Shown piece after piece: positions 6,019-24,743 of a stretch of 24,743 nucleotides of DNA. Each line of letters opens with the position of its first letter. The stretch's first letter is position 1. Below the pieces are notes generated by a model that had not been told where the DNA came from, ran no database searches, and saw only the letters and a list, made by a program, of their open reading frames with translations. The position numbers were made by a program, and so were the translations under genes. Source of the DNA: Frankiales bacterium (lineage in GTDB: Bacteria; Actinomycetota; Actinomycetes; Mycobacteriales; SCTD01). The stretch is taken from positions 1 through 24,743 of the forward strand of contig SCTD01000210.1 of assembly GCA_004299215.1 (NCBI GenBank), in the 5' to 3' direction.

Positions 6019-6057
6019 CCCGGCAGGAGTCGCGGGCCGGGTGTCGAAGTCCCCCGC

Positions 6058-7778: not shown

Positions 7779-8509
7779 GGCGACGTCGGGGACAGGCGGC
7801 GGACCACCGTCTCGACCATCGGTGCCACCTGGATCGTCGCGTAGTCGATGAAGTGCGAGGTCTCCTCGACGACCCTCCGCTGGTTGGCGCGGAGCTGGTC
7901 GATGTCCCCGCCGGAGACGTAGAACCGGTGCAGGTCGAGGAAGTCCCGCACGTCCGGCGACGCCTCGGTCACGATGCCGCGGTAACGCGGCGCACCGTCG
8001 GTGAGCGCACGGACGACCTCGTTGCGCACGTAGGACGCGAACGGGTGGCACTCCGCCGTCGTGATCCGGTGCAGCTCGTGCCAGTAGTGGAAGAAGACCT
8101 TCTCGTCCGCGCCCTCCGGCTTGTCGAGCAGCGTGACGATCGACAGCCCGGGAGAGGGCTCCCCCGCCGCCCACGTCATGACGTCGCCGTAGGGCTGCGG
8201 CACCGACTCGCTCACGAGGTACGACGCGCGCTCCGCAGCCGGAGCGGTCACCAGCAGCTGCTCCAGCTCGGGGGCGTCCTGGTAGCTGTCCCGCCACACC
8301 GACACCAGCCCGGCCAGCAGCCGGCCGTCACGCCCCCCGCCGTGCCGCAGGGCGCTGTGCGCCGGGTCGGCGGACTCGACGTGCACGGTCGCGGCGCGGA
8401 CCCCCGGGTTGCCCTGCAGCGCAGGCACCAGCTCGTCGGCTGCCCAGGACGGCAGCGAGCCCGGATCGCTGTCGGCCGTACGCCACAGGGCAGTGCACAC
8501 CTTCTCCAC
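7775..8509 (-). CDS. EthD-like (dimeric alpha/beta barrel) protein
   Basis: ~244 aa from GTG 8509. C-terminal half LLDKPEG...FFHYWHELH...SYVRNEVV...YRGIVTE fits the EthD pattern. Confidence 0.72.
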   Translation of the reverse strand: MEKVCTALWRTADSDPGSLPSWAADELVPALQGNPGVRAATVHVESADPAHSALRHGGGRDGRLLAGLVSVWRDSYQDAPELEQLLVTAPAAERASYLVSESVPQPYGDVMTWAAGEPSPGLSIVTLLDKPEGADEKVFFHYWHELHRITTAECHPFASYVRNEVVRALTDGAPRYRGIVTEASPDVRDFLDLHRFYVSGGDIDQLRANQRRVVEETSHFIDYATIQVAPMVETVVRRLSPTSP

Positions 8510-8543
8510 CCGGCGGACGCTAACGCACCCCGTCGCGCGGAAC

Positions 8544-8557
8544 AAGAACCTGTTCTA
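8544..8557. promoter_or_regulatory. KstR operator
   Basis: AAGAACCTGTTCTA, 1 mismatch to TnnAACnnGTTnnA, in a 59-bp divergent intergenic gap. Confidence 0.85.
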
Positions 8558-8568
8558 GTCTGAGCGCC

Positions 8569-9402
8569 ATGACGCGACCGGTGTGCGTGGTGACGGGGGC
8601 GAGCGCGGGGATCGGCGCCGCCGCCGTGGTGGAGATCGCCCGACGCGGCTACGACGTGGCCCTCACCGGGCGCAGCGCCGAGCGGCTCGAGGAGGTCGCG
8701 GAGCGGTGCCGCGCCGCGGGTGCGACCGCCCGCACGTACGCCGTCGACGTGGCCGAGCTGGACGCGGTCCGCGACCTGGCCAAGCAGCTGCTCACCGACT
8801 GGCCGCGCATCGACGTGCTGCTCAACAACGCCGCGCTCGTGACGCAGCGCCGGCACCTCACGCCCGACGGCCACGAGCAGGTCTTCGCCGTGAACCACCT
8901 GGCGCCCTACCTGCTCACCCGGCTGCTGCAGGAGCGGCTCGTCCAGAGCGCACCGTCGCGGGTCGTGATCGTCGCGAGCGACGCCTACACGTTCGACCAC
9001 CTCGACCCCGACGACTACATGAGCAGCACGCGCTGGAACCCGATGAAGGTCTACGGCCGCAGCAAGCTGTGCAACCTGCTCTTCGCCGCCGAGCTGCAGC
9101 GCCGGCTGGACGGCACCGGTGTCGCGGTCAGTACCGTGCACCCGGGTTTCGTGTCCACCTCGCTCGGCCGTGACAACCGCATCGCCGCCGTCGCGCTGAA
9201 GCTCATCAGGCCCTTCATCCGCACGCCGGAGAAGGGCGCGCGCACCCCGGTCTCCCTCGCCACGGAACCGCTCGGAGCGACCGGCGGTGCGCGCTTCCAC
9301 GTCGACGGCAAGGTGGTCGACCTCGACCCCCGCGCCACCGATCCGGTCATGGCGAAGCGGCTGTGGGACGACAGCGCCCGGCTGGTGGGTCTCGAGCCGT
9401 GA
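8569..9402 (+). CDS. Short-chain dehydrogenase/reductase (retinol-dehydrogenase-like subfamily)
   Basis: 277 aa; TGASAGIG, LLNNAA, VNHLAPYLLT, catalytic YGRSK, HPGFVST. Confidence 0.93.
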   Translation: MTRPVCVVTGASAGIGAAAVVEIARRGYDVALTGRSAERLEEVAERCRAAGATARTYAVDVAELDAVRDLAKQLLTDWPRIDVLLNNAALVTQRRHLTPDGHEQVFAVNHLAPYLLTRLLQERLVQSAPSRVVIVASDAYTFDHLDPDDYMSSTRWNPMKVYGRSKLCNLLFAAELQRRLDGTGVAVSTVHPGFVSTSLGRDNRIAAVALKLIRPFIRTPEKGARTPVSLATEPLGATGGARFHVDGKVVDLDPRATDPVMAKRLWDDSARLVGLEP

Positions 9403-9905
9403 GCCTCGAGACAGAGGTCGAGCAGGCCTTCCACGCCTGCTGGACGACTGGCAGCGTGAACGAGGACTGGGCCGCCTGGCCGGACCACCTCACCGAGGAC
9501 GTGCACTACGTCGAGCGCCACTTCGGCACCATGCACGGCCGCGACGCGGTCCGCGCCTGGATCACCGACCTGATGGTCGTGCGCGCCGACGTGCACGCGG
9601 TGCTGGAGTGGTACGTCGTGAAGGGTCGCCGGGTGATCCTGTCCATGCAGAACCGCTACTACGCAGCCGATCCCGCGCAGCCGCACATCGACTTCGCCGG
9701 CCTCACCGTGCTCGAGTACGCCGGCGACGGGCTCTTCGGCTACGAGGAGGACTACTGGGACCTCGCCGGTGCCAGGACGGCGTACGAGCGCTTCACCGCC
9801 GAGGTGGAGCGCGTCGGCGGGCGGGGCCTGGAGGACGGCCGGCTCGAGCAGCTGCAGGCCGAGCGGCGGGCTGCGACCGAGGCGGTCTTCGCCCGCGGCG
9901 GCTGA
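9399..9905 (+). CDS. NTF2-like / SnoaL_2 family protein
   Basis: 168 aa from GTG 9399 (GTGA overlap with the SDR stop). EDVHYVERHFGTMHGRDAVRAW and LEYAGDGLFGYEEDYWD. Confidence 0.8.
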   Translation: MSLETEVEQAFHACWTTGSVNEDWAAWPDHLTEDVHYVERHFGTMHGRDAVRAWITDLMVVRADVHAVLEWYVVKGRRVILSMQNRYYAADPAQPHIDFAGLTVLEYAGDGLFGYEEDYWDLAGARTAYERFTAEVERVGGRGLEDGRLEQLQAERRAATEAVFARGG

Positions 9906-9911
9906 GGCCGG

Positions 9912-10931
9912 CTACACCAGGTCGGCGAGCTGCTTCATGACCGCCGGGTCCTGGACGCCGCCGAGCAGCAGGGTGGTGACCGGGGACTGCCGCCACAGCT
10001 CGAGCCGCTCGGCGATCCGCTCGATCGGGCCGCACAGCGCGATGCCGTCGCACAGCTCGTCCGGAACGGCCTTGACCGCCCCGTCGCGGTCGCCGGCGAG
10101 GAACAGGTCCTGCACCTTGTGCGCCGCCTCCTCGAAGCCGAAGCGGGAGACGACGTCGAGGTGGAAGTTCTTGTCCTTGGCGCCCATGCCCCCGATGTAG
10201 AACGCCATCGTGAGCTTCACCCAGTCGATCGCCGCCTGCACGTCGTCGTCGACGACGACGGTCACCGGGCAGGCGACCTCGAACCCCGGCTTGGCCGTCG
10301 CGAGCGCGTCGGCGTAGACCGCCGGGGCGTTCTCGACGTGGAAGAAGATGGGCAGCCAGCCGTCGGCGATCTCGCAGGCGAGCGCGACGTTCTTCGGTCC
10401 CTCGGCGCCGAGGAAGACCGGGATCTCCGGGCGCAGCGGGTGGCAGTTCGCCTTGAGCGGCTTGCCCAGTCCGGTGCCCCCCGGGTAGGGCAGCGGGTAG
10501 TGCTCGCCGTCGCTGGTGACCGGCCCCTCGCGCCGCCAGATGTCCCGGCAGATCTGGACGTACTCCCGGGTGCGGGCGAGCGGCTTCGGGAAGGGCACGC
10601 CGTACCACCCCTCGACGACCTGCGGGCCGCTGACGCCGAGGCCGAGCTGCAGCCGCCCGCCCGAGAGCCGGTCGAGCGTCAGCGCCGTCATCGCGGTCGC
10701 GGCGGGCGTGCGCGCCGACAGCTGCACGAGGCCGGTGGAGAGCTTGATGCGCGAGGTGTGCGAGCCGAGCCAGGCGAGCGGCGTGAAGGCGTCGCTGCCG
10801 TACGACTCGGCGGTCCAGACGCTGTCGAACCCGCAGTCCTCGGCGGCCTGGGCGGCGGCGATCTGCTCACCCGGCTGCGGGCCCTGACCGGTCCAGTAGC
10901 CGAGCATCAGCCCGAGCTTGAGGTCGCTCAT
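9912..10931 (-). CDS. LLM-class F420-dependent oxidoreductase, Rv3520c-like
   Basis: 339 aa from ATG 10931 (ATGA overlap with fadE34). LGLMLGYW, VWTAESYGSDAFTPL, LGLGVSGPQVVEGWYG, AEGPKNVALA. Confidence 0.92.
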   Translation of the reverse strand: MSDLKLGLMLGYWTGQGPQPGEQIAAAQAAEDCGFDSVWTAESYGSDAFTPLAWLGSHTSRIKLSTGLVQLSARTPAATAMTALTLDRLSGGRLQLGLGVSGPQVVEGWYGVPFPKPLARTREYVQICRDIWRREGPVTSDGEHYPLPYPGGTGLGKPLKANCHPLRPEIPVFLGAEGPKNVALACEIADGWLPIFFHVENAPAVYADALATAKPGFEVACPVTVVVDDDVQAAIDWVKLTMAFYIGGMGAKDKNFHLDVVSRFGFEEAAHKVQDLFLAGDRDGAVKAVPDELCDGIALCGPIERIAERLELWRQSPVTTLLLGGVQDPAVMKQLADLV

Positions 10932-13105
10932 CGCGCGTCCTCCCGCGGCAGGCCGAGGATGCGCTCCCCGACGACGTTCTTGAGCACCTCGCTGGTGCCG
11001 CCGGCGATGGTCAGGCAGCGGGTGTTCAGCATCGTGTGCGCGAGCTTCGCGGTCCCGGGGTCCGAGAGGTCCAGCCCGTCGGCCCCGCACAGCTCGAAGC
11101 GGAGCTCGGCGGCGTCCTGCTGGTGCCGCATGCCGACCAGCTTGCGCACGCTGCTCGCCGGGCCGGGCTCGGCACCGGAGAGCTGGCGCAGCGTGGTGCG
11201 GAAGCCGAGCAGCGCCTGCCCGTGCGCCTCGCAGACGAGGTGCCCGACGCGGTCGCGGAGGACTCCGTCACCGCCGAAGCCGCCCAGAGCCGCGACGTCG
11301 GCGAGCACGTCCTCGACGCCGCGGCCGAAGGGCGAGCCGGAGCTCATCGCGACCCGCTCGTTGGCGAGCGTCGTGCGCGCCAGCGGCCAGCCGCCGCCGA
11401 CCTCGCCGACGAGGCAGTCGTCCGGCACGAACACGTCGTCGAGGAAGACCTCGTTGAAGGCGGCGTGCCCGGTCAGCTCGCGCAGCGGCCGCACGTCCAC
11501 GCCGGACGTCGTCATGTCCAGCAGGAGGTACGTGATGCCCTTGTGGCGATCCGGTCCCTTGCCGGTGCCGCTGGTGCGCACCAGGAGGATCGCCCAGTCC
11601 GCGACCTGCGCCATGGAGGTCCAGACCTTCTGTCCGTTGACCTTCCAGCCGCCCTCGACCTTCTCGGCGCGGGTCTGCAGCGCGGCGAGGTCGGAGCCGG
11701 CGCCGGGCTCGCTGAACATCTGGCACCACACGATCTCGCCGTGCAGCGTCGGGCGCACGAAGCGCTCCTGCTGCTCGGGGGTGCCGTGGGCGACGATCGT
11801 GGGCGCGGCCCAGCCGCCGATGATGAGGTCGGGCCGCTTCACCCCGGCGGCGGCGAACTCCTCGTCGATGACGAGCTGCTCGACGGCGTTCGCGTCGCGG
11901 CCCCACGGGGCCGGCCAGTGCGGCACGAGGTAGCCGGCGTCCGCGATGGCCCGGCGGTCCTGCGGGTCGATGCCGGCGAGGAACTCCCGCACGGACTCGC
12001 GAAGCGGCGCGGTGTCCGCACCCAGCTCCAGGTCGAGCTGACGACGGGCGCCGCCGAGCGCCAGGTCCGCGGAACGCCCGCGCCACGCGGCCGGGTCGCC
12101 GACGAGCGCCCGCAGCGACAGCGCGCGCTTGAGCACGATGTGCGCGTCGTGCTCCCAGGTGTAGCCGATGCCGCCGAGCACCTGCAGCGCGTCCTTGGCA
12201 TTGTCGAGCGCCGCCTGCACCGCGGTCGCGACGGCGATCGAGATGGTGAGCTCGGTCTCCGGCGAGAGCGGCTCGTCCAGCGCGCGGGCGGCGTCCCAGG
12301 CGGTGGCCCGGGCCTGCTCGGCGCGGACCAGCATGTCGGCGCACTTGTGCTTGATGCCCTGGAAGACGCCGATCGGACGGCCGAACTGCTCGCGGGTCTT
12401 GGCGTAGCCCACCGCCGTCTCGAGCGCCCAGCCGGCGATGCCGGCCGCCTCGGCCGCGACGACGGCGGCGGAGAGCGTGCGCACCGCGTCAGCGGTCAGC
12501 CCGTCCAGCACCCGCTGCTGCGGGACGACGACGTCCTGCAGCGAGACCTCGGCCGGCCGCCGGGTGGCGTCGAGCCCCGACAGCGGCGTGACCGTCGTGC
12601 TCGCCGCCTCGACGACGAACCACGTGTCACCGGCGCCGAGCACGAGCAGGTCGGCCAGCCCCGCGCCGACCACGGGTCGGACCGTCCCGGTCACCGTCAG
12701 GCCGTCGTCGGTGCCCGTCGCGACGAGCTCGCCCGGGACGAGGGCGACGGCCGCGGTCGTCGAGCCGTCCGCGAGGCCCGGAAGCAGCTCCTTGGCCGCC
12801 GTCCCGCCCGCTCGGGTGATCAGCAGGCTCGCGAGCACCGTCGGCAGCGCAGGCCCGTGCGCGAGCGATCGGGCGAGCTCCTCGACCGACACGGCGAGCT
12901 CCACGCCGCCCGCACCCGAACCGCCGAGCTCCTCCGGGACGTGCAGCCCGAGCAGTCCCTGCTCGGCCAGCCCGGGCCACCAGGACGGCCGGCACTCCGG
13001 GCCCTCGAGCGCCTCCCGGGCGGCCGCGCGGACCCCGGCCCGGTCGGCCCAGCCCCGGATCGCGGCAGCCAGCGCCTCGTGGTCCTCGCTCACACCGATG
13101 GCCAT
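10928..13105 (-). CDS. fadE34: Fused two-domain steroid acyl-CoA dehydrogenase (FadE34/ChsE3-like)
   Basis: 725 aa from ATG 13105 with AGGAGG RBS. Two ACAD modules (REQFGRPIGVFQGIKHKCA...GGIGYTWEHD and WCQMFSEPGAGSDLA...TIAGGTSEV). Divergent from kstR as in M. tuberculosis Rv3573c/Rv3574. Confidence 0.88.
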   Translation of the reverse strand: MAIGVSEDHEALAAAIRGWADRAGVRAAAREALEGPECRPSWWPGLAEQGLLGLHVPEELGGSGAGGVELAVSVEELARSLAHGPALPTVLASLLITRAGGTAAKELLPGLADGSTTAAVALVPGELVATGTDDGLTVTGTVRPVVGAGLADLLVLGAGDTWFVVEAASTTVTPLSGLDATRRPAEVSLQDVVVPQQRVLDGLTADAVRTLSAAVVAAEAAGIAGWALETAVGYAKTREQFGRPIGVFQGIKHKCADMLVRAEQARATAWDAARALDEPLSPETELTISIAVATAVQAALDNAKDALQVLGGIGYTWEHDAHIVLKRALSLRALVGDPAAWRGRSADLALGGARRQLDLELGADTAPLRESVREFLAGIDPQDRRAIADAGYLVPHWPAPWGRDANAVEQLVIDEEFAAAGVKRPDLIIGGWAAPTIVAHGTPEQQERFVRPTLHGEIVWCQMFSEPGAGSDLAALQTRAEKVEGGWKVNGQKVWTSMAQVADWAILLVRTSGTGKGPDRHKGITYLLLDMTTSGVDVRPLRELTGHAAFNEVFLDDVFVPDDCLVGEVGGGWPLARTTLANERVAMSSGSPFGRGVEDVLADVAALGGFGGDGVLRDRVGHLVCEAHGQALLGFRTTLRQLSGAEPGPASSVRKLVGMRHQQDAAELRFELCGADGLDLSDPGTAKLAHTMLNTRCLTIAGGTSEVLKNVVGERILGLPREDAR

Positions 13106-13141: not shown

Positions 13142-13155
13142 TAGAACAGGTTCTT
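13142..13155. promoter_or_regulatory. KstR operator (fadE34-proximal)
   Basis: TAGAACAGGTTCTT, 1 mismatch to consensus. Confidence 0.85.
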
Positions 13156-13209
13156 GTTCCTGTGCAGTTTCCCCCTGTGCGCGTGACGCGTCTGACAGGG
13201 GGAACGAGC

Positions 13210-13223
13210 TAGAACCGGTGCTA
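13210..13223. promoter_or_regulatory. KstR operator (kstR-proximal)
   Basis: TAGAACCGGTGCTA, 1 mismatch to consensus. Confidence 0.75.
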
Positions 13224-13879: not shown

Positions 13880-15391
13880 CTAGTCCGGGAAGCCCTCCTT
13901 GGCCGTCTTGGTCTTGGTGTCGTAGATCTTGTCCGAGCACCGGTTGCTGCCGGGCGCCTCGGGCAGGAAGCGCACGAACTTGCCCCCGCGTACCTGCACG
14001 ATCTTGGTGCAGCTGGCGAGCTCCTTGCCGCCGACGTCCTGTCCAGGGAACAGCCCGTTGCCGGTGTAGTTGCGCACCTTCGGGATCGTGGCCAGCAGCG
14101 CCTTGCGGGTGGGCTTGGGCCCGATCTCCTTCATCTTCTCCACGAACAGCGCCATCGCGCCCCACGCGAACTGGCCGATGCCGGTCGGCGTCTTCCCGGG
14201 CGCGACCTGGTTGAGCCACTGCGCGTACGTCTGCAGCTCCTTGTTCTGCGCGATCTCCTCGTTGAGCGAGGCGGTCACGGCGATGTAGGTCCCCTCCGCG
14301 GCGTCGCCGGCCTGCTTGATGTAGTCGGGGGTGTAGGCCGTGACCGTGGGCTGCCAGACCTTGGGGGTGTAGCTCTGCGCCTTGAACTCCTTGGCCAGCG
14401 CCGCGGCCTGCTGGTAGGCGCCGGTGAAGGTGACGTACTCGACGCCGCGGCTCTTGAGCTGCCGCACCACGGGGCCGTAGTTCGTCTCGGTGATGCCGAT
14501 GGCAGAGGAGTAGATCCAGTCGTAGCCGAGGATCTTGGTCGTCCCCTCCATGTCCTCCTCCGCCAGCGTGCGGGTGACCTCGCCGTCGATGTAGACGTAC
14601 GCCGCCTTCTTGACGGCCTCCGGGAACGTGTCCTTGGCCCAGCCGAACATGCTGAGGCTGCGCGCCCCGCCGGTGCCCGCCGCGTTGATCGGGAAGGCGT
14701 TCGGCACGACCTTCATCGGGTTGGTCGTCGACAGCCCGCGGATGTCGGGGATGCCGCAGTCCTGGATGACCGGGGCGCCGCCCTGGTCGAAGGCCGAGAC
14801 CGAGCCGGCACCGGCGAAGGACTTCGCGCAGGCCTCGAGACTGGCGCTGCGGTTGGCGCCCGCGTCCAGCCGCGAGTCGAGGGCGAGCAGCTTGAGCTTG
14901 CGCCCGTAGATCGTCCCCTCCCTGGCGGTGAAGTAGGCGACGTAGGCCTTGGCCGCGAGCTGGGCGTCCTCGAACAGGCCGGGCACCGCGCCGCTGATGT
15001 CGCTGACGTTGCTCACGACGATCGTGTCCGCCGTGATGCCCTTGTCCGTCGCACCGCCGTTGCCGCCGGGCGGCGCCGACCGGGTGTCCTTGGCACCACC
15101 GGCAGCCGTCCCTGCGGAGCCCGCGCTGCCGGCCGTGCCCGCGGTGCCCGCCGTGCCGCCCGTCGTGCCACTGATGGCCGGACCGGCCGTCGCAGCTGAC
15201 GTCGCCTCGGGTCCGGCGGCGAGCGGGTCGACCGCCGCCTCACCACCCTCGGCCAGCGAGCTGCCCCCGCCGCCGCCGCCGAACTGCGAGAGCGCCTCGG
15301 AGCGCTGCTCGTCGGACAGCCGTGCCCCGCAGGCGGTGGACAGCAGGGCGGACGCCAGCAGGGCGACGACCAGTCGGTTCGCGCTTCTCAT
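13880..15391 (-). CDS. ABC transporter substrate-binding lipoprotein, Liv/HAAT (periplasmic binding protein type 1) family
   Basis: 503 aa; lipobox-like LLSTAC, long Gly/Ala/Thr tether, GITADTIVV..SDISG..PG, IYGRKLKL...DS motifs. Confidence 0.88.
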   Translation of the reverse strand: MRSANRLVVALLASALLSTACGARLSDEQRSEALSQFGGGGGGSSLAEGGEAAVDPLAAGPEATSAATAGPAISGTTGGTAGTAGTAGSAGSAGTAAGGAKDTRSAPPGGNGGATDKGITADTIVVSNVSDISGAVPGLFEDAQLAAKAYVAYFTAREGTIYGRKLKLLALDSRLDAGANRSASLEACAKSFAGAGSVSAFDQGGAPVIQDCGIPDIRGLSTTNPMKVVPNAFPINAAGTGGARSLSMFGWAKDTFPEAVKKAAYVYIDGEVTRTLAEEDMEGTTKILGYDWIYSSAIGITETNYGPVVRQLKSRGVEYVTFTGAYQQAAALAKEFKAQSYTPKVWQPTVTAYTPDYIKQAGDAAEGTYIAVTASLNEEIAQNKELQTYAQWLNQVAPGKTPTGIGQFAWGAMALFVEKMKEIGPKPTRKALLATIPKVRNYTGNGLFPGQDVGGKELASCTKIVQVRGGKFVRFLPEAPGSNRCSDKIYDTKTKTAKEGFPD

Positions 15392-15421
15392 GTGTGCCTT
15401 CCAGGAGGTGCTGGGGTCAGG

Positions 15422-15994
15422 TCAGGCGCGCTCGAGGACGCCGAGCGGGTCGCAGAGCCGGCAGGGCTGCAGCCCCTCGACCTCGGCGTCGCCGACGGCG
15501 TGCACGTCGTCGCGACCGGTGACGATCGCGCAGTCGGGGCGGTGCAGCATCGAGCCGTGGGCGGTGGCGACCAGGCCGTGCGCGCCGCTGCCGTTGCTCG
15601 AGGCGGCCTTGCGACGGCCCCTCGCCTGCGCGGGAACCGGCTCGGCCGCGCTCGTCCTGAGCTGGGTCAGCTCGGCGCGCAGCTCGCGCACGGCCAGCAG
15701 CAGCTCGTCGTCCCGGGCGCCCTGCTCGCGCGACGTGCGCGCGATCCAGGAGCCGAACAGGACGAAGCCGCCGGTCATCACGAGGCCGAGACCGAGCAGC
15801 CCACCACTGACGAGGTACGGCACCTGCTCGAACAGGTACGGCGTGTGCGACGCGCCGTACCAGCCGAGCAGGACCATCACCAGGCCGAGCGGCAGCAGCA
15901 CCGCAGCCAGCACGGTCATCAGCTGATCGGCGGTCGAGACGCGGTCCCGGAGCCGGGTCGGGCGGGCGTCGGCGAAGGCGTCGGGCTCGGTCAC
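15422..15994 (-). CDS. Two-TM membrane protein with coiled-coil and C-terminal Ada-like metal-binding motif
   Basis: 190 aa; GWYGASHT...[13 protein letters not shown] between helices, [17 protein letters not shown]-terminal LHRPDC...[14 protein letters not shown] overlap with the upstream gene. Confidence 0.8.
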
Positions 15995-17508
15995 GGGCGC
16001 TCCTCGGTCCGCAGGTCGGGCAGATCGCTGGGGGCGCCGAAGGCGCAGCCGCCGCCGAGGAGGGCGCCGCCGAGCGCGGCCCCCTGCAGGGCCAGCAGGC
16101 CGCGTGCCCCGACCCCGGCCAGGAACAGGCCGGTGAGCACGAGCATCAGCGGCAGCCCGCCGAAGCCGGCCGGTCGGGAGTCCGCGGACGTGGCCACGAC
16201 CGGCAGTGCCGCACCGGCCTCCGCGGGCGCGCTGACCGGTGCCTCGATCCCGGCGCTGACGGGCGCCGCGACCGGGATGCCCGGGGTGCCGGGGATGGCC
16301 GGCGTGCCGGCCATCCCGCCGGTGAGCGGCGGGAGCTCCAGCGTCGGGAAGTCGAACATCAGCGGGAGCGTGGCGGCGGCCGCGGCATCGGCCTGGCCCA
16401 TGATGAAGGTGATCTTGGGCGTGGCGGACAGCGTGTAGAAGAGCAGGTTGTTCGGCTGCGGCGCCGACGGCGGGAGCCCGGGGATCGCCGGCACCTCGCC
16501 GAACACGCCGCCCAGCGCGTCGGCGAGACCGGGGATCTCGTTGATGGCGCCGCGCAGCACCACGGTGTCGACGGTGATCCGCAGGCCCTGCGCACGACGC
16601 GTCGCCGACGCCCCGGTCTCGGTCGACTTCTGGGAGACCGGCTCGACGGTCAGGCCGAGCGTCTTGAGGGCGTCGAGCCCGTTGCCGAGCTGCTCGGGGT
16701 AGCCCGCCGCGGGCTCCTCGGAGCCGGGGCGCACGCCGTTCTCGTCGACGACGAACGGCGTGCCGGCGATGCTCAGGCCGGAGACCGTGGTCGACCCGGC
16801 CGACGCGGCCTTCACCGCGTCGCTGCGCGTCTCGAGGGTCGTGACGACCGAGTCGATGGTGATGGTGCCGCCGAGCAGGGACACGTCGGTGACCTTGGAG
16901 ACGGCAGTGGAGACCAGGACGTCCTTCACGTCGTCCTTGCTCTTGTTGTCGGCCACGGTGGTCGCCGACGAGGTCGAGCTCGCGTTGCCGAACGACATGG
17001 CCTGCTCGCTGCCGGGCGGCTGGCCCTGGGTGCTCGCCGTCGCCGACATGTCGAGCCCGAGCGCCTGGCTCCTCATCTGCGCGGCGCCCATGTTCGTCTC
17101 GGCCGTGGGCGTGCCGCCGGGGTAGGAGGAGTAGGCCTGGACCGGGTAGACGGTGCTCGGGTCACCGGTGACCTGCGGCAGGCCCTCGCCGAAGAGCCCT
17201 CCTGGCCACAGCGAGCTGGCGATGGCGCGTCCGGTCGGCCCGGTGTTGAGCTGGACCAGGGTGAACGACGGGTCGACCTCGACGATCGCTGCCTCGGGCG
17301 GTCGCGGGATGGGGATGCTCGGGTCGTCGAGCAGGACCTTGAAGGGCGCAGCGCTGGACTCGGCGATGAAGCCGCCCAGGTCGGTGTCGGTGCGCGGCTC
17401 GGCCGCGTTGACCGGCGCGCTGAGCAGCGGCACGCTGCCGATGACGACGACGCCCGACAGCAGCGCGCCCCATGCTCGTGCTCGACGCACTCGCCGGTCT
17501 GCGGTCAT
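15991..17508 (-). CDS. Secreted, C-terminally membrane-anchored beta-rich protein (possibly choice-of-anchor P-like)
   Basis: 505 aa; signal peptide (..PVNA-AE), Ser/Thr-rich beta-like core, Pro/Ala linker, C-terminal hydrophobic segment and GGGCAFG tail. ATGA overlap with the upstream ATPase. Confidence 0.75.
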
Positions 17509-18218
17509 GCGGCACCTCCCAGGTAGGCCTCGGACAGCTGAGACTCGATGTCGGCGGGCTCGCCGACCGCGGTGACGCGGCCACCCACCATGACGACGGC
17601 GTACTGCGCGACGGCGAGCGCGCGGCGGGCGAACTGCTCGACCACCAGGACGGACACCCCCGTCGCGGCGATCTCGGCGACCAGCTCGTAGAGCTGCTCG
17701 ACGATGAGCGGCGCGAGCCCCATCGAGAGCTCGTCGAGCATGAGCAGCGCCGGGTCGGTCGCGAGCGCGCGTGCCATGGCGAGCATCTGCTGCTCACCGC
17801 CGGAGAGCCGGCCGGCGAGCTGGCTGCGCCGCTCCTGCAGCCGCGGGAACTGCGCGAAGGTCCGCTCGCGGATGTCCTTCTCGCCGACCTTCGCGGTGTA
17901 GGCGAACAGCCGGAGGTTCTCGTCGACGGACAGGTTCGGGAACACACCCCGGCCCTCGGGGATCGTGCACAGGCCGGCCCGGGCGAGCCGGTCGGGGTCG
18001 GCGCCGTTGAGGTGGTGACCCGACAGGTGCACGTGACCGGACGTCGGCGGCATCTGACCGCTCGCGACCCGCAGCGTCGTGCTCTTGCCGGCGCCGTTCG
18101 GCCCGAGCAGCGCGACCACGCAGCCGCGCGGGACCGTGAGGTCGACGCCGTGCAGCACCTCGATCCGGCCGTACGCCGCGTGCACGTCGATCAGCTCGAG
18201 AGCGGGGGTCTCCGTCAT
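17505..18218 (-). CDS. ABC ATP-binding protein, LivF-like
   Basis: 237 aa from ATG 18218; [37 protein letters not shown]. Confidence 0.95.
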
Positions 18219-18961
18219 GCCGGCACGTCCTCGAGGTCGGCGGACGCCCCCGTGTCGGCGCCGAGGTAGGCGTCCTGCACGCGCGCGTCGGCGGCGATGA
18301 CCTCCGGCGGTCCGGTGGCGATGATGTGGCCGAAGTCGAGGACGTGGATCGTCGAGCACAGGCTCATCACCAGCTCGACGTCGTGCTCGACGAGCAGCAC
18401 CGACCGGCCGTCGTCGTCGGCCAGCGACCGGACCAGCTTCTCGAAGTCCTCGGTCTCGTCGTCGGACAGGCCGGAGGACGGCTCGTCGAGCAGCAGCAGC
18501 TGCGGGTCGCAGGCCAGCGCGCGGGCGAGCTCGGTGAGCCGGGCGATGCCGGTCGGGACGGAGTCGGCGGGGACGTCCTGGAAGCCGCGCAGACCGACCC
18601 GGTCCAGCAGCCCGTCGCGCACCGTCGCCGGCGAGGAGACGCCGCGCATCTCGGCCGCGACCAGGACGTTCTCGCCGACCGTCAGCGAGCCGAAGACCTC
18701 GAGCCGCTGAAAGGTGCGGCCGATCCCCATCCGCGCGCGACGGCGCGGCGCCATCTCGGTGATGTCGACGTCGCGGAAGCGGACCCGGCCGGTGGTCGGC
18801 TCCTGCAGCCCGGTGATGACGTTGAAGAGCGTCGTCTTGCCCGCGCCGTTCGGCCCCATGAGGCCGACGACCGCGCCCTCCTCGACCTCGAAGGTGGCAT
18901 CGGTGACGGCGTGGACGCCGCCGAAGCGGACGCCGACCTCGGTGAGCTCAAGAAGCGCCAA
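18215..18961 (-). CDS. ABC ATP-binding protein, LivG-like
   Basis: 248 aa, TTG start; FGGVHAV, GPNGAGKT, GIGRTFQ, LLLDEPSSG, VEHD, VQDAYLG. Confidence 0.95.
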   Translation of the reverse strand: MALLELTEVGVRFGGVHAVTDATFEVEEGAVVGLMGPNGAGKTTLFNVITGLQEPTTGRVRFRDVDITEMAPRRRARMGIGRTFQRLEVFGSLTVGENVLVAAEMRGVSSPATVRDGLLDRVGLRGFQDVPADSVPTGIARLTELARALACDPQLLLLDEPSSGLSDDETEDFEKLVRSLADDDGRSVLLVEHDVELVMSLCSTIHVLDFGHIIATGPPEVIAADARVQDAYLGADTGASADLEDVPA

Positions 18962-20891
18962 CGACCTCGCCCTTCTCGATCCGGGCCAGGTCGAGCTGCC
19001 GCGGCAGCGCGGCGCGCAGCCGGTTGCCCCAGCCGAAGAGCAGCTGGGCCACGCCGTTCGGGTTGCCGCCCAGGCCGAGGACGGCGAGCAGCAGCAGGAC
19101 GTAGATGACGCCGGCGAGCGCCGGGACCTGGTCGAGCAGGACGGGCATCAGGCCGTACGCCAGCCCGCCGAGGAGCACGCCGGTCACAGTCGTGACGCCG
19201 CCGACCACGGCGAACAGCAGCAGCGGCAGGCTCTGGAAGAACATGAAGTCCGCGGTGCTGATCGAGACCCGCATGCCGGTGTAGAAGACGCCGGCGACGC
19301 CGGCCAGGCCTGCGCTGACCGCGAAGACGGCGACGCGGACCGCGCGGGTGTTGTAGCCGAGCGTCGCGCAGGCCGCCTCGCTGTCGCGCGCGGCGAGCAG
19401 GATGCGGCCGTACCGGCTGCGGCGCACGCCGAGCACCAGGAAGCCCATCAGCACGAAGGCGACCGCGACCGACATCGCCATCGCGCGCTCTCCCGTCAGG
19501 TCGAGGCCGAGCAGGCTGCCGCGCTCCAGGGTGAGCGAGCCGCCGCCGGCGCCGAAGCCGAACTTGGTCTGGAAGAGCATCGAGTCGAGCGCGCTCGCGA
19601 CGGCGAGCGTCGCGAGGCCGAGGTAGAGCCCGCGCAGCCGCAGCGCGGGGACCGCCACGAGCACGCCCAGCAGGGCGGTCGCGAGGAAGGCCCAGGCGAT
19701 CGACCACACCGTGATCCCCGCGTCGACGAACGGCAGCAGCTTGCCGCCGACCACCAGGCCGCCGACGCCCACGAAGCTCATCTGGCAGAGCGAGACGTCG
19801 CCGCCGTAGCCGACCAGCAGCACCAGCGACAGCATGATGAGCGAGATGCACAGCGCCTGGCCGAAGCGCGAGTTGTCGGCCTCGCTGAGCGAGCCGGTCA
19901 GCACGAAGACGCCGGCCAGGAACACCGCGCCCCAGGTGAGGGTCCGGCTCCACGACGGCAGCGCGGGCATCTTGGTGCCGGCCACCCGCCCGACGCGCAG
20001 CTTGTCCTGCGGCAGCATCAGCATCACCGCCAGCAGGAAGATCGTCGGCAGCGCGATGCGGGTGCCCTGCACCAGGCCGCCGAGGGTCTGGTCGACGGAG
20101 GCGGGGATGTAGGCGACGCCCCACTGCGCGTACGACGTGAGCAGTCCCAACACGAGCGCACCGACGAAGGTGCGCGGCAGGTTCTTGAGCCGGCCGACCA
20201 TGGCGGCGGCGTAGGCCGCGATCACCAGCAGGGTGAGGTTCAGGTAGTCGAGCTGCAGCGTCGGCACCAGCAGCACGCCGGCGAGTGCCGCCAGCGAGCA
20301 GCCGATCGCCCAGGACAGCCCGGACAGCCGGTTCGGCCGGGCGCCGTGCAGCGCGAGCAGCTCGCGGTTGTCGACGACCGCGCGCATCGCGGTGCCGGTG
20401 CGGGTCCGGTTGAGCAGCACGAACAGGGCGGCCGCCACCGCGACGGCGACGCCGAAGGTGATGAGCTGCTGGGCGGTGATGAAGTAGTCGCCGACCTGCA
20501 GGCCGCGGCCGTTGAAGTACGGGTCGACCTTGCGCCCGGCCGGCGGCCACAGCGCCTGGGCCGCCCCGATGAGGGCGACGAGCAGGGCGACGGTGACGAC
20601 GAGCGCGACGGCCACGGGCGCGTCCGTGAGCTTGCGCATCATGAAGCGCTCGATGAGCAGGCCGAACAGCGGCGCGAGCACGCCGACGACGAGGACCAGG
20701 GCCAGCAGGGGCGGGAGCCCCCGGTCGACCGCCAGCTCCCAGTAGACGAACGCCATGAACATCCCCACCGAGCCGTGGGCGATGTTGAAGACGTTGCTGG
20801 TGGCGTAGGTGAGGACGAGACCGCTCGCCGCCACGGCATAGGCCGACCCGGCGATCAACCCGATGATCGTGAAGGCCAGGAACTGGCTCAC
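18948..20891 (-). CDS. Fused LivH/LivM-type ABC permease
   Basis: 647 aa, GGAGG RBS. First half GLVLTY..SNVFNIAHG / RTGTAMRAVVDN; second half LVLLVGYGGDVSLCQ / LRLRGLYLGLATL / SRYGRILLAARDSE. Confidence 0.93.
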   Translation of the reverse strand: MSQFLAFTIIGLIAGSAYAVAASGLVLTYATSNVFNIAHGSVGMFMAFVYWELAVDRGLPPLLALVLVVGVLAPLFGLLIERFMMRKLTDAPVAVALVVTVALLVALIGAAQALWPPAGRKVDPYFNGRGLQVGDYFITAQQLITFGVAVAVAAALFVLLNRTRTGTAMRAVVDNRELLALHGARPNRLSGLSWAIGCSLAALAGVLLVPTLQLDYLNLTLLVIAAYAAAMVGRLKNLPRTFVGALVLGLLTSYAQWGVAYIPASVDQTLGGLVQGTRIALPTIFLLAVMLMLPQDKLRVGRVAGTKMPALPSWSRTLTWGAVFLAGVFVLTGSLSEADNSRFGQALCISLIMLSLVLLVGYGGDVSLCQMSFVGVGGLVVGGKLLPFVDAGITVWSIAWAFLATALLGVLVAVPALRLRGLYLGLATLAVASALDSMLFQTKFGFGAGGGSLTLERGSLLGLDLTGERAMAMSVAVAFVLMGFLVLGVRRSRYGRILLAARDSEAACATLGYNTRAVRVAVFAVSAGLAGVAGVFYTGMRVSISTADFMFFQSLPLLLFAVVGGVTTVTGVLLGGLAYGLMPVLLDQVPALAGVIYVLLLLAVLGLGGNPNGVAQLLFGWGNRLRAALPRQLDLARIEKGEVVGAS

Positions 20892-20938
20892 GGCTCGAGT
20901 CCTCCGTCTCCGTCGGCGCTGCTGGGGTGTGGAGCGGC

Positions 20939-20954
20939 TGTGTCACAGATCACA
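20939..20954. promoter_or_regulatory. CRP/GlxR-type binding site
   Basis: TGTGTCACAGATCACA (minus strand TGTGA-TCTGTG-ACACA), 1 mismatch to TGTGA-N6-TCACA, ~48 bp upstream of the permease start. Confidence 0.55.
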
Positions 20955-21000
20955 ACGTGCTGGGAGGATCTTCGACACGGGTGCCGCCAACCCTTCTCGG

Positions 21001-21906
21001 TCACGACAGCGCGTAGAACTCCGCTGCGGTGAAGCCGGCCCCCGGGTCACGGTCGGCGAAGTAGCTGCCCAGGGCCCCGTCGAGGTCCTCGAGCGTCCAG
21101 CTGGGCCCGCTCGCGTCGAACCGCTTCTCCACCGTGGGAGCGCCCGCCAGCGCGACCATCGGGCCGTACGCCACGAAGACCTGGCCGGTGATCGCGGCCG
21201 CGGCCGGTGACGCGAGGTAGGCCACCAGCGGGGCGACGTGGTCCGCGGACAGCGGGTCGGCGCCCTCGGGAGCCTCGCCGAAGACGTTCTCGGTCATGGC
21301 GGTGCGGGCGCGGGGGCACAGCGCGTTCGCCCTGACGCCGAAGCGCCCGCAGGCGTGGGCGGTCGAGAGGGTCAGGGCGGTGATCCCGGCCTTGGCGGCG
21401 GCGTAGTTGGGCTGGCCGGGCGAGCCGAACAGGAACGCCTCGCTGGAGGTGTTGATGACGCGCGCGTCGACCGTCTCGCCGGCCTTCGAGCGGGCGCGCC
21501 AGTGCGCCGTGGCGAAACGGGTGGTGGCTGCGTGACCCTTGAGGTGGACGCCGATCACGGTGTCCCACTCCTGCTCGCTGATGTTGAAGATCAGCCGGTC
21601 CCGGAGCACGCCCGCGTTGTTGACGAGCACGTCGAGCCGGCCGTAGCTGTCGACCGCCGCCTGCACCAGCCCCTCGGCGACCGACCAGTCCGACACGTCG
21701 CCCGGGGCGGCGACGGCGGAGCCGCCTCTGCTCTCGATCTCGGCGACGACCTGCGCCGCCGCCCCGGCGTCGTAGTCGTTGACGACCACGCTCGCACCGG
21801 CGGCGGCGAGCGCGAGGGCCTCGGCGCGACCCAGGCCCTGCCCGGCCCCGGTGACGAGGGCGGAGCGGCCGTCGAGCCGGAGCCGGTCGGTCTGCGGAGC
21901 GGTCAC
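21001..21906 (-). CDS. hsd4A: Steroid side-chain SDR, Hsd4A / Rv3502c-like
   Basis: 301 aa from GTG 21906 with GGAGG RBS. TGAGQGLGRAEAL, NTSSEA, QPNYAAAKAGITALT, ALCPRARTAMTENVFG, GQVFVAYGP match recalled Rv3502c throughout. Confidence 0.85.
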   Translation of the reverse strand: MTAPQTDRLRLDGRSALVTGAGQGLGRAEALALAAAGASVVVNDYDAGAAAQVVAEIESRGGSAVAAPGDVSDWSVAEGLVQAAVDSYGRLDVLVNNAGVLRDRLIFNISEQEWDTVIGVHLKGHAATTRFATAHWRARSKAGETVDARVINTSSEAFLFGSPGQPNYAAAKAGITALTLSTAHACGRFGVRANALCPRARTAMTENVFGEAPEGADPLSADHVAPLVAYLASPAAAAITGQVFVAYGPMVALAGAPTVEKRFDASGPSWTLEDLDGALGSYFADRDPGAGFTAAEFYALS

Positions 21907-21943: not shown

Positions 21944-21957
21944 AAGAACACGTTCTA
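21944..21957. promoter_or_regulatory. KstR operator upstream of hsd4A (proximal)
   Basis: AAGAACACGTTCTA, 1 mismatch to consensus. Confidence 0.85.
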
Positions 21958-22000: not shown

Positions 22001-22014
22001 GAGAACGTGTTCTA
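22001..22014. promoter_or_regulatory. KstR operator upstream of hsd4A (distal)
   Basis: GAGAACGTGTTCTA, 1 mismatch to consensus. Confidence 0.85.
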
Positions 22015-22106: not shown

Positions 22107-23735
22107 TCAGGCCGGGAGGGCTCGGCCGGACTCGGCGAAGGCCTTCTCGAGGGCGGCGGCGTCGTCGGCCGTGAACGGGCGGAGGTCGAGCGAGCGGCCG
22201 TCGCGGACCCAGACGTCACCGCCGGTCCAGCGCTCGCGGACCAGCTGGCGCACCAGCACCTTGCCGGTCGCGGTGCGCGGCAGGTCGGGGTCGACCCGCA
22301 GGTAGCGCGGCACCCAGGTGGGCGAGGCGTCCGGCTGCGACGCGACCCAGCGGGCGAAGCCGGCCGGGTCGAAGCCGTCGGCGGCGACGACCGCGGCCAT
22401 CACCTGGTCACCCGCGGTGGCGTCCGGCACGGCGTAGACGACGGCCTCGACGACCTGCGGGTGGCCGGTCAGCAGCCGGGCGACGGGCGCGGCGGGGAAG
22501 TTCTCCCCCGACACCCGCAGCCGGTCCGCGCTGCGGCCGGCGAAGTAGAGGAACCCGTCGGCGTCGGCGTAGCCGAGGTCGCCGCTCCAGTACCTCCCGT
22601 CGCGCAGCCGGTGCGCCGTCTCGACCGGGCTGTCCCAGTAGCCCTCGAACATCCCGGGCCCGTCGAAGCCGACCAGCTCGCCGACGGCCTCGTCGGCGTT
22701 GACCAGCCGTCCCGTCTCGTCGAAGACCGCCGGCGGGCACTGCTGCCCCGAGGCGTCGCACACGCGCACGTCCCCGACCGGGCGGCCGAGCGAGCCCCTC
22801 GGGGTGTCCGGGGTGCGGCTGATGCTGATGCCGCCCTCGCTCGACCCGAAGCCGTCCATGACGGTGCAGCCGAACCGCTGACCGAACCGCTCCAGGTCTG
22901 CCGGCGCGCCCTCGTTGCCGAAGAGCCGCCGGAGCGGGTTCGCCGCGTCGTCCGGCTGCTCCGGCTGCGCCAGGACGTACGACAGCGGGGTGCCGACGTA
23001 GTTGGCGAACGTCGCGCCGAAGCGCCGCACGTCCGGGAGGAACTGCGACGCGCTGAAGCGGCGGCGCAGCGCGAGGGTGGCCCCGACGGCGAGGGCCGGT
23101 GCCCAGCCGGCGATCACGGCGTTGGAGTGGAAGAGCGGCATGGAGCAGTACGCGACGTCGTCGGCGGTGAGCTCGACCCGCAGCGACACCCCGAACCCGG
23201 AGGACGCGATCTTGCTCTGCGAGCAGCGCACCGCCTTGGGGGTGCCGGTCGTGCCGCTGGTGAAGACGAGCGTGAACAGGTCGGTCGGCTCAGCCTGCTC
23301 CGCCGGGAGGTCGGCCGCCGGGTAGGCCTGCGCGTCGACGTCGACCACCGTCGCGCCGCCGAGGTCGAGCCCCTCCAGCAGCGGCAGGCCGGCCGCGTCC
23401 GTGAGCACGAGGTCGCAGGCGGTCGCGCGGACGTCCGCGGCCAGCTCCTCACCGCGCCGGGTGGAGTTCAGGCCGACCACGACGAACCGGCCGAGGCCCG
23501 CGGCGCCGAGCCAGAAGGCGAACTCCGGGACGTTCTCGAGCAGCACGCCGACGTGCGGCGGCCCGTCGACGCCGCGCGAGGTCCGGTCCGCGGCGTACCA
23601 CGCGGCGCGCGCCGTGGACTCGGCGACGACCTCGACCCACGTCCACGAGCGGTCCTCGACGAGCAGGCCGGGGCGGGGGTCGGCGGCTCGTGCGCGCAGC
23701 AGCTCCCCGACCGTGGACGGGAAGCCGCCGGTCAC
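22107..23735 (-). CDS. fadD17: Acyl-CoA synthetase, FadD17 (Rv3506)-like
   Basis: 542 aa from GTG 23735 (GTGA overlap). PPHVGVLLEN, GLNSTRRG, FTSGTTGTPKAV, CSMPLFHSNA, FGSSEGG, GRSADRLRVSGENF. Confidence 0.8.
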   Translation of the reverse strand: MTGGFPSTVGELLRARAADPRPGLLVEDRSWTWVEVVAESTARAAWYAADRTSRGVDGPPHVGVLLENVPEFAFWLGAAGLGRFVVVGLNSTRRGEELAADVRATACDLVLTDAAGLPLLEGLDLGGATVVDVDAQAYPAADLPAEQAEPTDLFTLVFTSGTTGTPKAVRCSQSKIASSGFGVSLRVELTADDVAYCSMPLFHSNAVIAGWAPALAVGATLALRRRFSASQFLPDVRRFGATFANYVGTPLSYVLAQPEQPDDAANPLRRLFGNEGAPADLERFGQRFGCTVMDGFGSSEGGISISRTPDTPRGSLGRPVGDVRVCDASGQQCPPAVFDETGRLVNADEAVGELVGFDGPGMFEGYWDSPVETAHRLRDGRYWSGDLGYADADGFLYFAGRSADRLRVSGENFPAAPVARLLTGHPQVVEAVVYAVPDATAGDQVMAAVVAADGFDPAGFARWVASQPDASPTWVPRYLRVDPDLPRTATGKVLVRQLVRERWTGGDVWVRDGRSLDLRPFTADDAAALEKAFAESGRALPA

Positions 23736-24743
23736 GCGGGGGCCTTGGCCACCGCGTCGGTCAGCACCTTCGTCGCCCACCCGTAGTCCGGCTTGCCGCT
23801 GGGCGAGCGCTGCATCAGGTCGATGACGTGCACGAAGCGCGGCACCTTGTAGCGCGCGATGCGCGAGGACAGGTGCTGCTCGATGTCCTCCTGCGACGGG
23901 GCCTCGTGCCCGTCGACGACCTGCAGCACCGCGGCGACCCGCTGCCCCCACCGCTCGTCGGGGATGCCGGCGACGACGGCGTCGAGCACGGCCGGGTGGC
24001 TCTTGAGCGCGCCCTCGACCTCCTCGGGATAGATCTTCTCGCCACCGGAGTTGATGCAGATCGAGCCGCGGCCGAGGAAGTGCATGGTGCCGTCCTCCTC
24101 GACGGTCGCCATGTCGCCCGGCATGACCCAGCGCTCCCCGTCGATCTCGACGAAGGTCTTGGCGGTCTTCTCCGGGTCGCCCCAGTAGCCCAGCGGGATG
24201 TGGCCCTTCTGCGCGACGCGCCCCACCGTGCCCGAGCCCCACGCGACCGGCTTGAGGTCGTCGTCGAAGACGTTCGTGCGCTCGTGCACGGTGAACTTCA
24301 GGCCGTCGCTGGCCTTGCTGCCGGGCTTGGCCGAGCCGTTGTAGCCGGTCTCGGTCGAGCCGAAGCTGTCGTTGATGTAGACGTTGGGCAGCTTGGCGTT
24401 GATGAGGTCGCGCACCGGCTGCGAGAGCAGCGCACCGGCCGAGGCCAGCACCAGCAACGAGGAGGTGTCGTACGACTTCTCCTCCAGCGCCTGGATGACC
24501 GGGATCGCCATCGCGTCGCCGACGATGGTGAAGGTGTTGATCTTCTCCTGCTCGATGAGCGACAGCGCGCCGTCGCCGGTGTAGCGGCGGATCAGGCAGA
24601 CCTTGCCGCCGCCGAGGAAGTTGATGAAGCTGCCGAGCTGGGCGGCGCCGTGCATGAGAGGCGGCGCCGGGAACGACACCAGCGGGCTGTTCGCGGCGGC
24701 GCGGGCGCCGGCTTCCTTCGGGCCGGCGAGCCGATCGCCGACC
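23732..24743 (-). CDS. fadD19: Steroid acyl-CoA synthetase, FadD19 (Rv3515c)-like; 5' part outside the window
   Basis: Frame open to the window edge. PPLMHGAAQ, VGDAMAIP, DSFGSTETG, GHIPLGYW.D..KTAKTF, GRGSICINSGGEKIYPEEVE, RSPSGKPDY. Confidence 0.8.
   Translation of the reverse strand, partial: VGDRLAGPKEAGARAAANSPLVSFPAPPLMHGAAQLGSFINFLGGGKVCLIRRYTGDGALSLIEQEKINTFTIVGDAMAIPVIQALEEKSYDTSSLLVLASAGALLSQPVRDLINAKLPNVYINDSFGSTETGYNGSAKPGSKASDGLKFTVHERTNVFDDDLKPVAWGSGTVGRVAQKGHIPLGYWGDPEKTAKTFVEIDGERWVMPGDMATVEEDGTMHFLGRGSICINSGGEKIYPEEVEGALKSHPAVLDAVVAGIPDERWGQRVAAVLQVVDGHEAPSQEDIEQHLSSRIARYKVPRFVHVIDLMQRSPSGKPDYGWATKVLTDAVAKAPA

Follow-up and report, generated by a model that had tools for sequence, protein, structure and literature searches.

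Which transporter brings steroids into the cell in bacteria outside the mycolate group, for which the steroid uptake systems were still listed as unidentified (Bergstrand 2016)? The question is raised here by one contig of a groundwater metagenome-assembled genome (MAG) of a Frankiales bacterium, SCTD01000210.1 of assembly GCA_004299215.1, which we analyzed over its entire length of 24,743 nt and refer to as the window. The MAG (3.2 Mb in 738 contigs, completeness 81%) belongs to an uncultured family of the GTDB order Mycobacteriales, and the window is the whole of its contig C498 (24.7 kb). Directly behind a gene similar to hsd4A, in the slot taken by the yrbE4/mce4 operon in a mycobacterial-type genome of the same order, the window harbors six genes for a Liv-type transporter of the ATP-binding cassette (ABC) class, a member of the HAAT family, which we take to be TC 3.A.1.4. 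Judged from its sequence and genomic context, this system is probably an importer that serves the KstR-controlled steroid side-chain pathway and not amino acid uptake.

KstR-type boxes were scored by the number of positions matched out of 12 of TAGAACNNGTTCTA. The features of the locus, from the hsd4A promoter to the region beyond kstR, are:

22001..22014: distal KstR-type operator 5′ of hsd4A, GAGAACGTGTTCTA, 11/12
21944..21957: proximal KstR-type operator, about 38 nt 5′ of the likely hsd4A start, AAGAACACGTTCTA, 11/12
21001..21906, minus strand: hsd4A-like short-chain dehydrogenase/reductase (SDR), NF005862 428.5 bits (cut-off 414)
20939..20954, minus strand: operator-like motif TGTGA-N6-NCACA in the hsd4A-permease gap, conserved in orthologous gaps
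18948..20891, minus strand: fused LivH/LivM-type permease of 647 amino acids (aa), PF02653 in two stretches, UrtB-like and UrtC-like halves
18215..18961, minus strand: LivG-type ATPase, PF00005 and PF12399 (BCA_ABC_TP_C tail), NF008449 195 bits
17505..18218, minus strand: LivF-type ATPase of 237 aa, TIGR03410 (UrtE) 196 bits and NF008626 (LivF) 173 bits, ATGA overlap at each end
15991..17508, minus strand: acc1, 505 aa, no Pfam match and a marginal "choice-of-anchor P" match
15422..15994, minus strand: acc2, 190 aa, two transmembrane (TM) helices, no family match
13880..15391, minus strand: lipoprotein substrate-binding protein (SBP), a type I periplasmic binding protein (PBP), PF13458 (Peripla_BP_6) 101 bits
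13259..13867, plus strand: kstR-like TetR repressor gene, convergent with the SBP gene and divergent from fadE34; its product scores below the NF033703 cut-off (232 bits, cut-off 280) and has PF17925 (TetR_C_20)
13142..13223: pair of KstR-type operators between the divergent genes fadE34 and kstR, TAGAACAGGTTCTT at 13142 and TAGAACCGGTGCTA at 13210

Five KstR-type boxes are present in the window, versus 0.09 expected by chance. As a preliminary description of this DNA had claimed, two of them precede hsd4A. The hsd4A product scores above its family cut-off. The likely start of this gene is the GTG at 21906 and not 21951, judging from the onset of the family match and the length of homologs (295–301 aa); for the LivF-type gene, the start is the ATG at 18218 and a longer open reading frame (ORF) is not used. 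The same description had proposed that six genes follow on the same strand after 109 bp, that the first five are linked by overlapping stop and start codons, and that the operon ends 12 nt from kstR. All of this is found in the window: 14 nt are shared by the permease and LivG genes, stop and start codons overlap as ATGA, ATGA, and GTGA at the three junctions that follow, and the SBP stop at 13880 faces the convergent kstR stop at 13867. Only acc2 and the SBP gene are separated, by a 30-nt gap, and a GGAAGG ribosome-binding site lies ahead of the SBP gene.

Is this an ordinary branched-chain amino acid or urea/amide importer that merely lies beside steroid genes? Public records do name the system a branched-chain amino acid transporter, which the preliminary description had expected of automated annotation, and the Pfam and NCBIfam matches are of the Liv/Urt type. 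The parts of a HAAT/Liv-type system are complete: two BPD_transp_2 domains in one protein, a LivG with BCA_ABC_TP_C, a LivF, and a Peripla_BP_6 SBP, all of which it shares with LivJ/K-LivHMGF and UrtABCDE. It differs from both in its fused permease, in its two additional subunits, and in an SBP whose identity to solved members reaches 18% at most. No equivalog model comes near its cut-off (63 versus 379 for the LivH-type model and 22 versus 477 for the Liv SBP model).

The SBP starts with a signal peptide ending in LSTAC, followed by a low-complexity linker of about 100 aa rich in Gly, Ala, and Thr. Its AlphaFold2 (AF2) model has a pLDDT of 91.7, and the fold matches LivK/LivJ at TM scores of 0.7–0.8. 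Compared with solved SBPs, identity does not exceed 18%, and the nearest ones have leucine, aromatic acids, urea, or a fatty acid as ligand. The fatty-acid-binding SBP of Thermomonospora curvata (4n03) is among the top three matches by both sequence and fold (E = 1.9e-7; TM score 0.72; 18% identity). Like the SBP of the window, it is an actinobacterial type I PBP, in its case for a hydrophobic acid; the two differ in sequence, with only 18% identity.

The two additional subunits, encoded by acc1 and acc2, have no counterpart in classical Liv or Urt systems. Acc1 comprises a signal peptide, an ectodomain rich in beta structure (about 350 aa), a Pro/Gly stalk, a TM helix at the C-terminal end, and a GC..GAPSxLPDLR tail that is conserved. 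Among 5.8 billion proteins, about 70 homologs were found, nearly all MAG-derived and every one labeled hypothetical, and a Nocardioidaceae branch numbers more than 370 members. The AF2 model of acc1 is of moderate quality (pLDDT 65). Foldseek retrieved nothing from the PDB at E ≤ 0.001, VIA-align gave a top Z of 6.7, which is within noise and where beta-barrel sheets were the sole matches, and the AlphaFold database clusters returned uncharacterized proteins only. In acc2, the cytoplasmic tail carries an H-x3-C ... C-x2-C motif whose residues H151, C155, C178, and C181 are invariant in both types of operon described below. Full-text literature searches yielded no description of the six-gene system, of acc1, or of acc2.

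If the system serves steroid catabolism, it should keep company with steroid genes elsewhere. The preliminary description had suggested a neighborhood analysis across Actinomycetota for linkage to hsd4A, kstR, and fadD17/19, and this linkage, along with that to fadE34, recurs in every related locus examined. The order [fadD19-fadD17]-(fadE26/27)-hsd4A-permease-LivG-LivF-acc1-acc2-SBP-<kstR-box-fadE34-LLM is kept in 15 of the 15 related loci with readable flanks (12 public contigs and 3 genomes), although the identity of acc1 drops to about 40% across them. A second order, SBP-permease-LivG-LivF-acc1-acc2, is found in three further families of Mycobacteriales as well as in Nocardioidaceae. Five of the seven readable SBP-first loci immediately follow a KstR box that is perfect or nearly so (L046, L047, and L049) or a box followed by hsd4A (L050 and L052), and another (L048) lies behind hsd4A. 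In the cultured Jatrophihabitans cynanchi (SB3-54, region of WAX57027-57031), a member of the same order, the SBP-first copy and a fadE26/27-like pair diverge from either side of TAGAACACGTTCTA. The copy of Nocardioides marmorisolisilvae (L033, scaffold3 4791-11479), also SBP-first, is flanked by a histidine kinase gene, two genes for TetR_C_6 regulators, and alpha/beta hydrolase genes. The window's own genome encodes two further paralogous permease-ATPase-ATPase-acc1(-acc2) systems, on C662 (L057) and C239 (L056), both contigs being truncated; on C662, a KstR box, TAGAACGCGTTCCA, lies 39 nt 5′ of the permease gene.

How might the operon be transcribed? We found no intrinsic terminator between hsd4A and the permease gene, and read-through from the KstR-boxed hsd4A promoter into the ABC operon is therefore plausible from the sequence. 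The gap holds a conserved element of its own. All 13 orthologous hsd4A-permease gaps contain GTGA-N6-NCACA (10 of them as TGTGA), versus 6 of 2000 shuffles, and a conserved TCGAC[A/G] lies 27–35 nt before it in 11 of the 13. TGTGA-N6-NCACA occurs nine times genome-wide, and in one locus (L030) GTGA-N6-NCACA overlaps a near-KstR box, TAGAACGTGATCTA. The TGTGA-N6-NCACA element of the gap presumably resembles CRP/GlxR-type sites.

The distribution of acc1 bears on the association with steroid catabolism. Among 401 genomes of the order, KshA is encoded by 32 of the 35 genomes with acc1 and by 79 of the 366 without it. Two unpublished genomes (G170 and G357), each with acc1 and KshA, are part of these counts and support no other statement here; without them, KshA is found in 30 of 33 acc1-positive genomes. 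Of the three acc1-positive genomes that lack KshA, one (G011) carries kshA with a frameshift. In the window's family, 20 genomes have both genes, two acc1 only, two KshA only, and 23 neither, and nine sampled genomes of the window's genus that lack acc1 all lack KshA too. Relatedness inflates the overall counts, and the patchiness within the genus is more telling. In one steroid degrader without acc1 (G037), no other transporter follows hsd4A; a SecA2-like gene and unrelated genes are found there.

In G011, which belongs to the window's genus, kshA, hsaA, and acc1 are all split by frameshifts or TGA stops (G011:C19:610000-640000, identical to G042, on a contig of about 1 Mb). These splits probably reflect long-read assembly error rather than pseudogenization.

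Given this KshA linkage, the invariant synteny, the KstR boxes, the sub-cut-off equivalogs, and two conserved subunits foreign to Liv and Urt systems, we rejected the ordinary Liv/Urt importer, which we hold to be very improbable. The same data bear on a different reading, in which the cargo would be hydrophobic acids other than steroids (long-chain, methyl-branched, or isoprenoid), for which the cell would use the same beta-oxidation enzymes and KstR-type repressor as for steroids. The fatty-acid-binding SBP among the nearest solved relatives, the generic beta-oxidation types of the neighboring genes, and the N. marmorisolisilvae copy among hydrolase and TetR genes would fit. This reading has to contend with the tight co-occurrence with KshA and the patchy loss of the system jointly with the steroid pathway within a genus. 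Moreover, the orthologs of hsd4A, fadD17/19, and fadE34 are steroid-specific in characterized organisms. We consider it improbable.

What kind of steroid would be expected? The window's genome encodes KshA and HsaA (660 bits) and is, on this gene content, that of a predicted 9,10-seco steroid degrader. In relatives, the steroid cluster contains a CYP125/124-like cytochrome P450 gene about 10–20 kb upstream of the ABC operon, which in G041 is the only P450 detected, and ltp2, ltp3, and ltp4 also lie in the cluster upstream of the ABC block. The copy of this P450 in the window's genome, on contig C548, is 47% identical to a P450 inside the steroid cluster of the mycobacterial-type genome introduced below (G035). 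The CYP125/124-like P450 together with ltp2 and ltp3/ltp4 points to substrates with alkyl side chains, as far as gene content can tell.

The CYP125/124-like P450 gene of the cluster is paired with a gene for a FabK-like nitronate monooxygenase (L085, G041:C39:44000-57000; L086, G000:C548).

Does the system take the place of Mce4? As control for the mce4 slot and for operator scans we used G035, a mycobacterial-type genome of the same order with 11 mce operons. There, hsd4A is followed by a perfect KstR box (TAGAACGTGTTCTA) and yrbE4A, and the hsd4A product of the window is 56% identical to that of the G035 gene immediately 5′ of yrbE4A. The ABC operon thus does occupy the yrbE4/mce4 slot, as had been proposed. 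The further proposal that it is used instead of Mce4 holds in part. The window's genome is not free of mce genes, since it has five MlaD-domain matches, four on C536 (4.4 kb) and one on C15 (2.7 kb); the part that stands is that no KstR-linked operon of the mce4 type was found, as typed in relatives. The mce contigs of the window's genome lack upstream DNA, its yrbE genes are not assembled, and the operon was typed in relatives instead. The ABC locus itself contains no MlaE/YrbE and no MlaD/Mce domains.

ABC-bearing relatives have one mce operon each, except for two genomes with two and three. In the ten operons examined, no box of at least 10/12 was found within 4 kb upstream of yrbEA. In a tree of YrbEA and YrbEB, all operons of G035, the hsd4A-adjacent mce4 included, form a clade with 100/100 support. 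The pairs from the window's family (G011, G012, G041, and the first operon of G050) fall outside this clade, as do the YrbE pairs of the other ABC-bearing genomes, the exception being one of three G241 operons, which is sister to the clade. The family's YrbE pairs are unusually conserved: those of G011 and G041 are 94% identical, and the acc1 products of these genomes are 41–54% identical to that of the window. From these sequence data, ABC-bearing organisms appear to possess a generic actinobacterial mce operon and no detectable KstR-linked one of the mce4 type.

The single mce operons of three genomes of the window's family (G011:C12, G041:C55, and G012:C299; L042, L043, and L045) encode YrbE proteins that are 94–99% identical between genomes. 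An ORF for an MceG-like ATPase seems to precede yrbEA in the mce operons of this family.

The cholesterol importer Mce4 (YrbE4AB-Mce4A-F with MceG, in Mycobacterium and Rhodococcus) and the window's system share the slot directly 3′ of hsd4A in the KstR regulon, a putative one in the window, and each is an ABC system of several subunits that includes accessory proteins outside the cytoplasm. They differ in that the window's system uses a classical SBP and a LivHM permease, and in its own gap without a KstR box. A first precedent is CamABCD of Rhodococcus jostii RHA1 (ro04888-ro04885), which imports cholate metabolites (PMC8399759). Compared by description only, CamABCD is likewise an ABC importer for steroid-derived compounds, with an SBP that the Nocardioides simplex annotation calls an "ABC amino acid transporter" component; unlike the window's system, it belongs to cholate metabolism and not to the hsd4A/kstR block. 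We know of no report of acc1- or acc2-type subunits in CamABCD.

A second precedent is the operon KR76_25195-25180 of N. simplex VKM Ac-2033D ("CamA" SBP-livH-livG-livF), whose genes were induced 59-, 9.7-, 13-, and 15-fold by phytosterol. KR76_25195 was the most induced gene of that experiment, and its induction was 65-fold with cholesterol and 13-fold with lithocholate (PMC7807495; PMC7593942). The operon resembles the SBP-first variant in its order, its single permease gene, and a steroid-repressor site, and differs in being assigned to KstR2 and adjoining kstR2/fadD3 (PMC7807495; PMC7593942). The authors made no proposal of this operon as a steroid or sterol importer. In N. simplex, a KstR-regulated mce operon is present as well, beside hsd4A, so the two kinds of system coexist in some lineages. 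These precedents lower the novelty of the window's system; new are its two additional subunits and its position at the mce4 slot within the KstR block.

The precedents bring two cargos into view. One is acidic steroids, taken up as by CamABCD: bile acids, cholestenoate-type acids, or excreted intermediates of side-chain and ring degradation. Besides CamABCD itself as an importer of cholate metabolites and the lithocholate-induced "CamA" SBP in the KstR2 regulon of N. simplex, the position of fadD19 and fadD17 just upstream is in line with this, as an acid, once imported, could be activated by their products. Carboxylates are the typical ligands of HAAT SBPs, and the three paralogous systems in one genome fit a set of several related acids. 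The locus, however, lies in the KstR side-chain block and not in the KstR2 block, and we regard acidic steroids as a serious possibility without calling them probable.

The other cargo is neutral sterol (cholesterol or phytosterol), for which the system would be the primary importer and a functional replacement of Mce4 in non-mycolate actinobacteria. This is suggested by its position in the mce4 slot after hsd4A, by a resident mce operon that is neither boxed for KstR nor of the mce4 type, by the CYP125/124-like P450 and ltp3/ltp4 with the alkyl side chains that they imply, by the vacancy for an uptake system outside mycolate bacteria (Bergstrand 2016), and by the phytosterol response of the N. 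simplex operon, which holds the gene most induced there. Known ligands of HAAT SBPs, however, are small or have a carboxylate or amide, the nearest hydrophobic precedent being the fatty acid of 4n03; the generic mce operon could also take up sterols; and the presence of both a KstR-regulated mce and a Liv-type operon in N. simplex indicates that the two systems are not alternatives in general. Neutral sterol as the cargo thus seems to us rather unlikely. Equally doubtful is the boldest form of the proposal, in which steroid-degrading Actinomycetota outside the mycolate group, among them Jatrophihabitans, Nocardioidaceae, and uncultured families of the Mycobacteriales, would take up sterols chiefly through this system in the role of Mce4, and acc1 would extract insoluble sterol at the surface, or chaperone it, and load it onto the type I SBP.

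Returning to an importer for the KstR-controlled side-chain pathway, we infer which way transport runs, what class of cargo is carried, what acc1 and acc2 do, and how the operon is regulated, as follows. Outside the membrane, the lipoprotein SBP would bind a hydrophobic ligand of the steroid type; this could be a sterol, though a carboxylated steroid is the more cautious assumption. The SBP would pass the ligand to the fused LivHM permease, energized by the LivG and LivF ATPases. The anchored beta-rich ectoprotein acc1 and the two-TM protein acc2, with its cytoplasmic His/Cys3 tail, may adapt the machine to a poorly soluble cargo. Transcription would combine read-through from the KstR-boxed hsd4A promoter with an operon promoter that has its own conserved operator-like motif.

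Several observations weigh against such a steroid importer. The 109-bp gap between hsd4A and the permease gene contains no KstR box of the TnnAACnnGTTnnA type, its best match being 6/12, and control of the operon by KstR would thus depend on read-through. The ligand of the SBP cannot be read from the modeled fold, since identity to any solved SBP is too low for the ligand to be deduced. To our knowledge, no type I PBP binds a neutral sterol. The synteny counts overstate independence, the related loci being phylogenetically close. In the N. marmorisolisilvae copy, there is no obvious steroid cluster and the KstR-like box before the SBP gene reaches merely 10/12; some members of the six-gene family may not be linked to steroids. 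The N. simplex precedent is under KstR2 and not KstR. Finally, the retained generic mce operon could still carry sterols.

Around this locus, the window contains further genes of the steroid block and of the putative local KstR regulon:

23732..24743, minus strand: fadD19-like acyl-CoA synthetase gene, NF005863/PRK07798 416 bits, 5′ part beyond the contig end, kept upstream of the locus in relatives
22107..23714, minus strand: fadD17/CasI-like steroid-22-oyl-CoA synthetase gene, NF052587 583 bits and NF005897 538 bits, both below the cut-offs, start approximate
10928..13100, minus strand: fadE34/ChsE3-like double acyl-CoA dehydrogenase (ACAD) gene, two ACAD modules, start approximate
9912..10920, minus strand: Rv3520c-type F420-dependent LLM oxidoreductase gene, TIGR03559 438.6 bits (cut-off 335), start approximate
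7775-8545, minus strand, and 8569-9402, plus strand, the latter an SDR gene: divergent pair around the KstR box at 8544, putative members of the local KstR regulon with no assigned role
4585-6018: gene for an Abhydrolase_10 protein, putative member of the local KstR regulon with no assigned role

The long ORF of the fadD17-like gene overlaps fadD19, and its identity across syntenic loci is 65–94%. The gene at the fadE34 position in relatives encodes a product of about 720 aa, and the kstR-like gene of relatives, at the same place, is 68–87% identical. An IS21-family element, with an istA transposase gene and an istB helper ATPase gene, occupies positions 613-2786 (minus strand) at the contig end adjoining the steroid gene block. 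Read runs containing DNA of the window come from groundwater, soil, other environmental, and a few gut metagenomes; metatranscriptomes share at most 7% of its words.

The system is a concrete and genetically testable candidate for the steroid uptake route of non-mycolate actinobacteria, in several actinobacterial families, and it has cultured carriers in J. cynanchi SB3-54 and in Nocardioides/Marmoricola species. If the proposal is true, the HAAT family would extend to steroid cargo and two new ABC accessory subunits would be defined. It would also correct a widespread misannotation, by which metagenomes of soil and groundwater are credited with a "branched-chain amino acid transporter" and their capacity for steroid uptake stays hidden, and it may help in engineering strains for sterol bioconversion.

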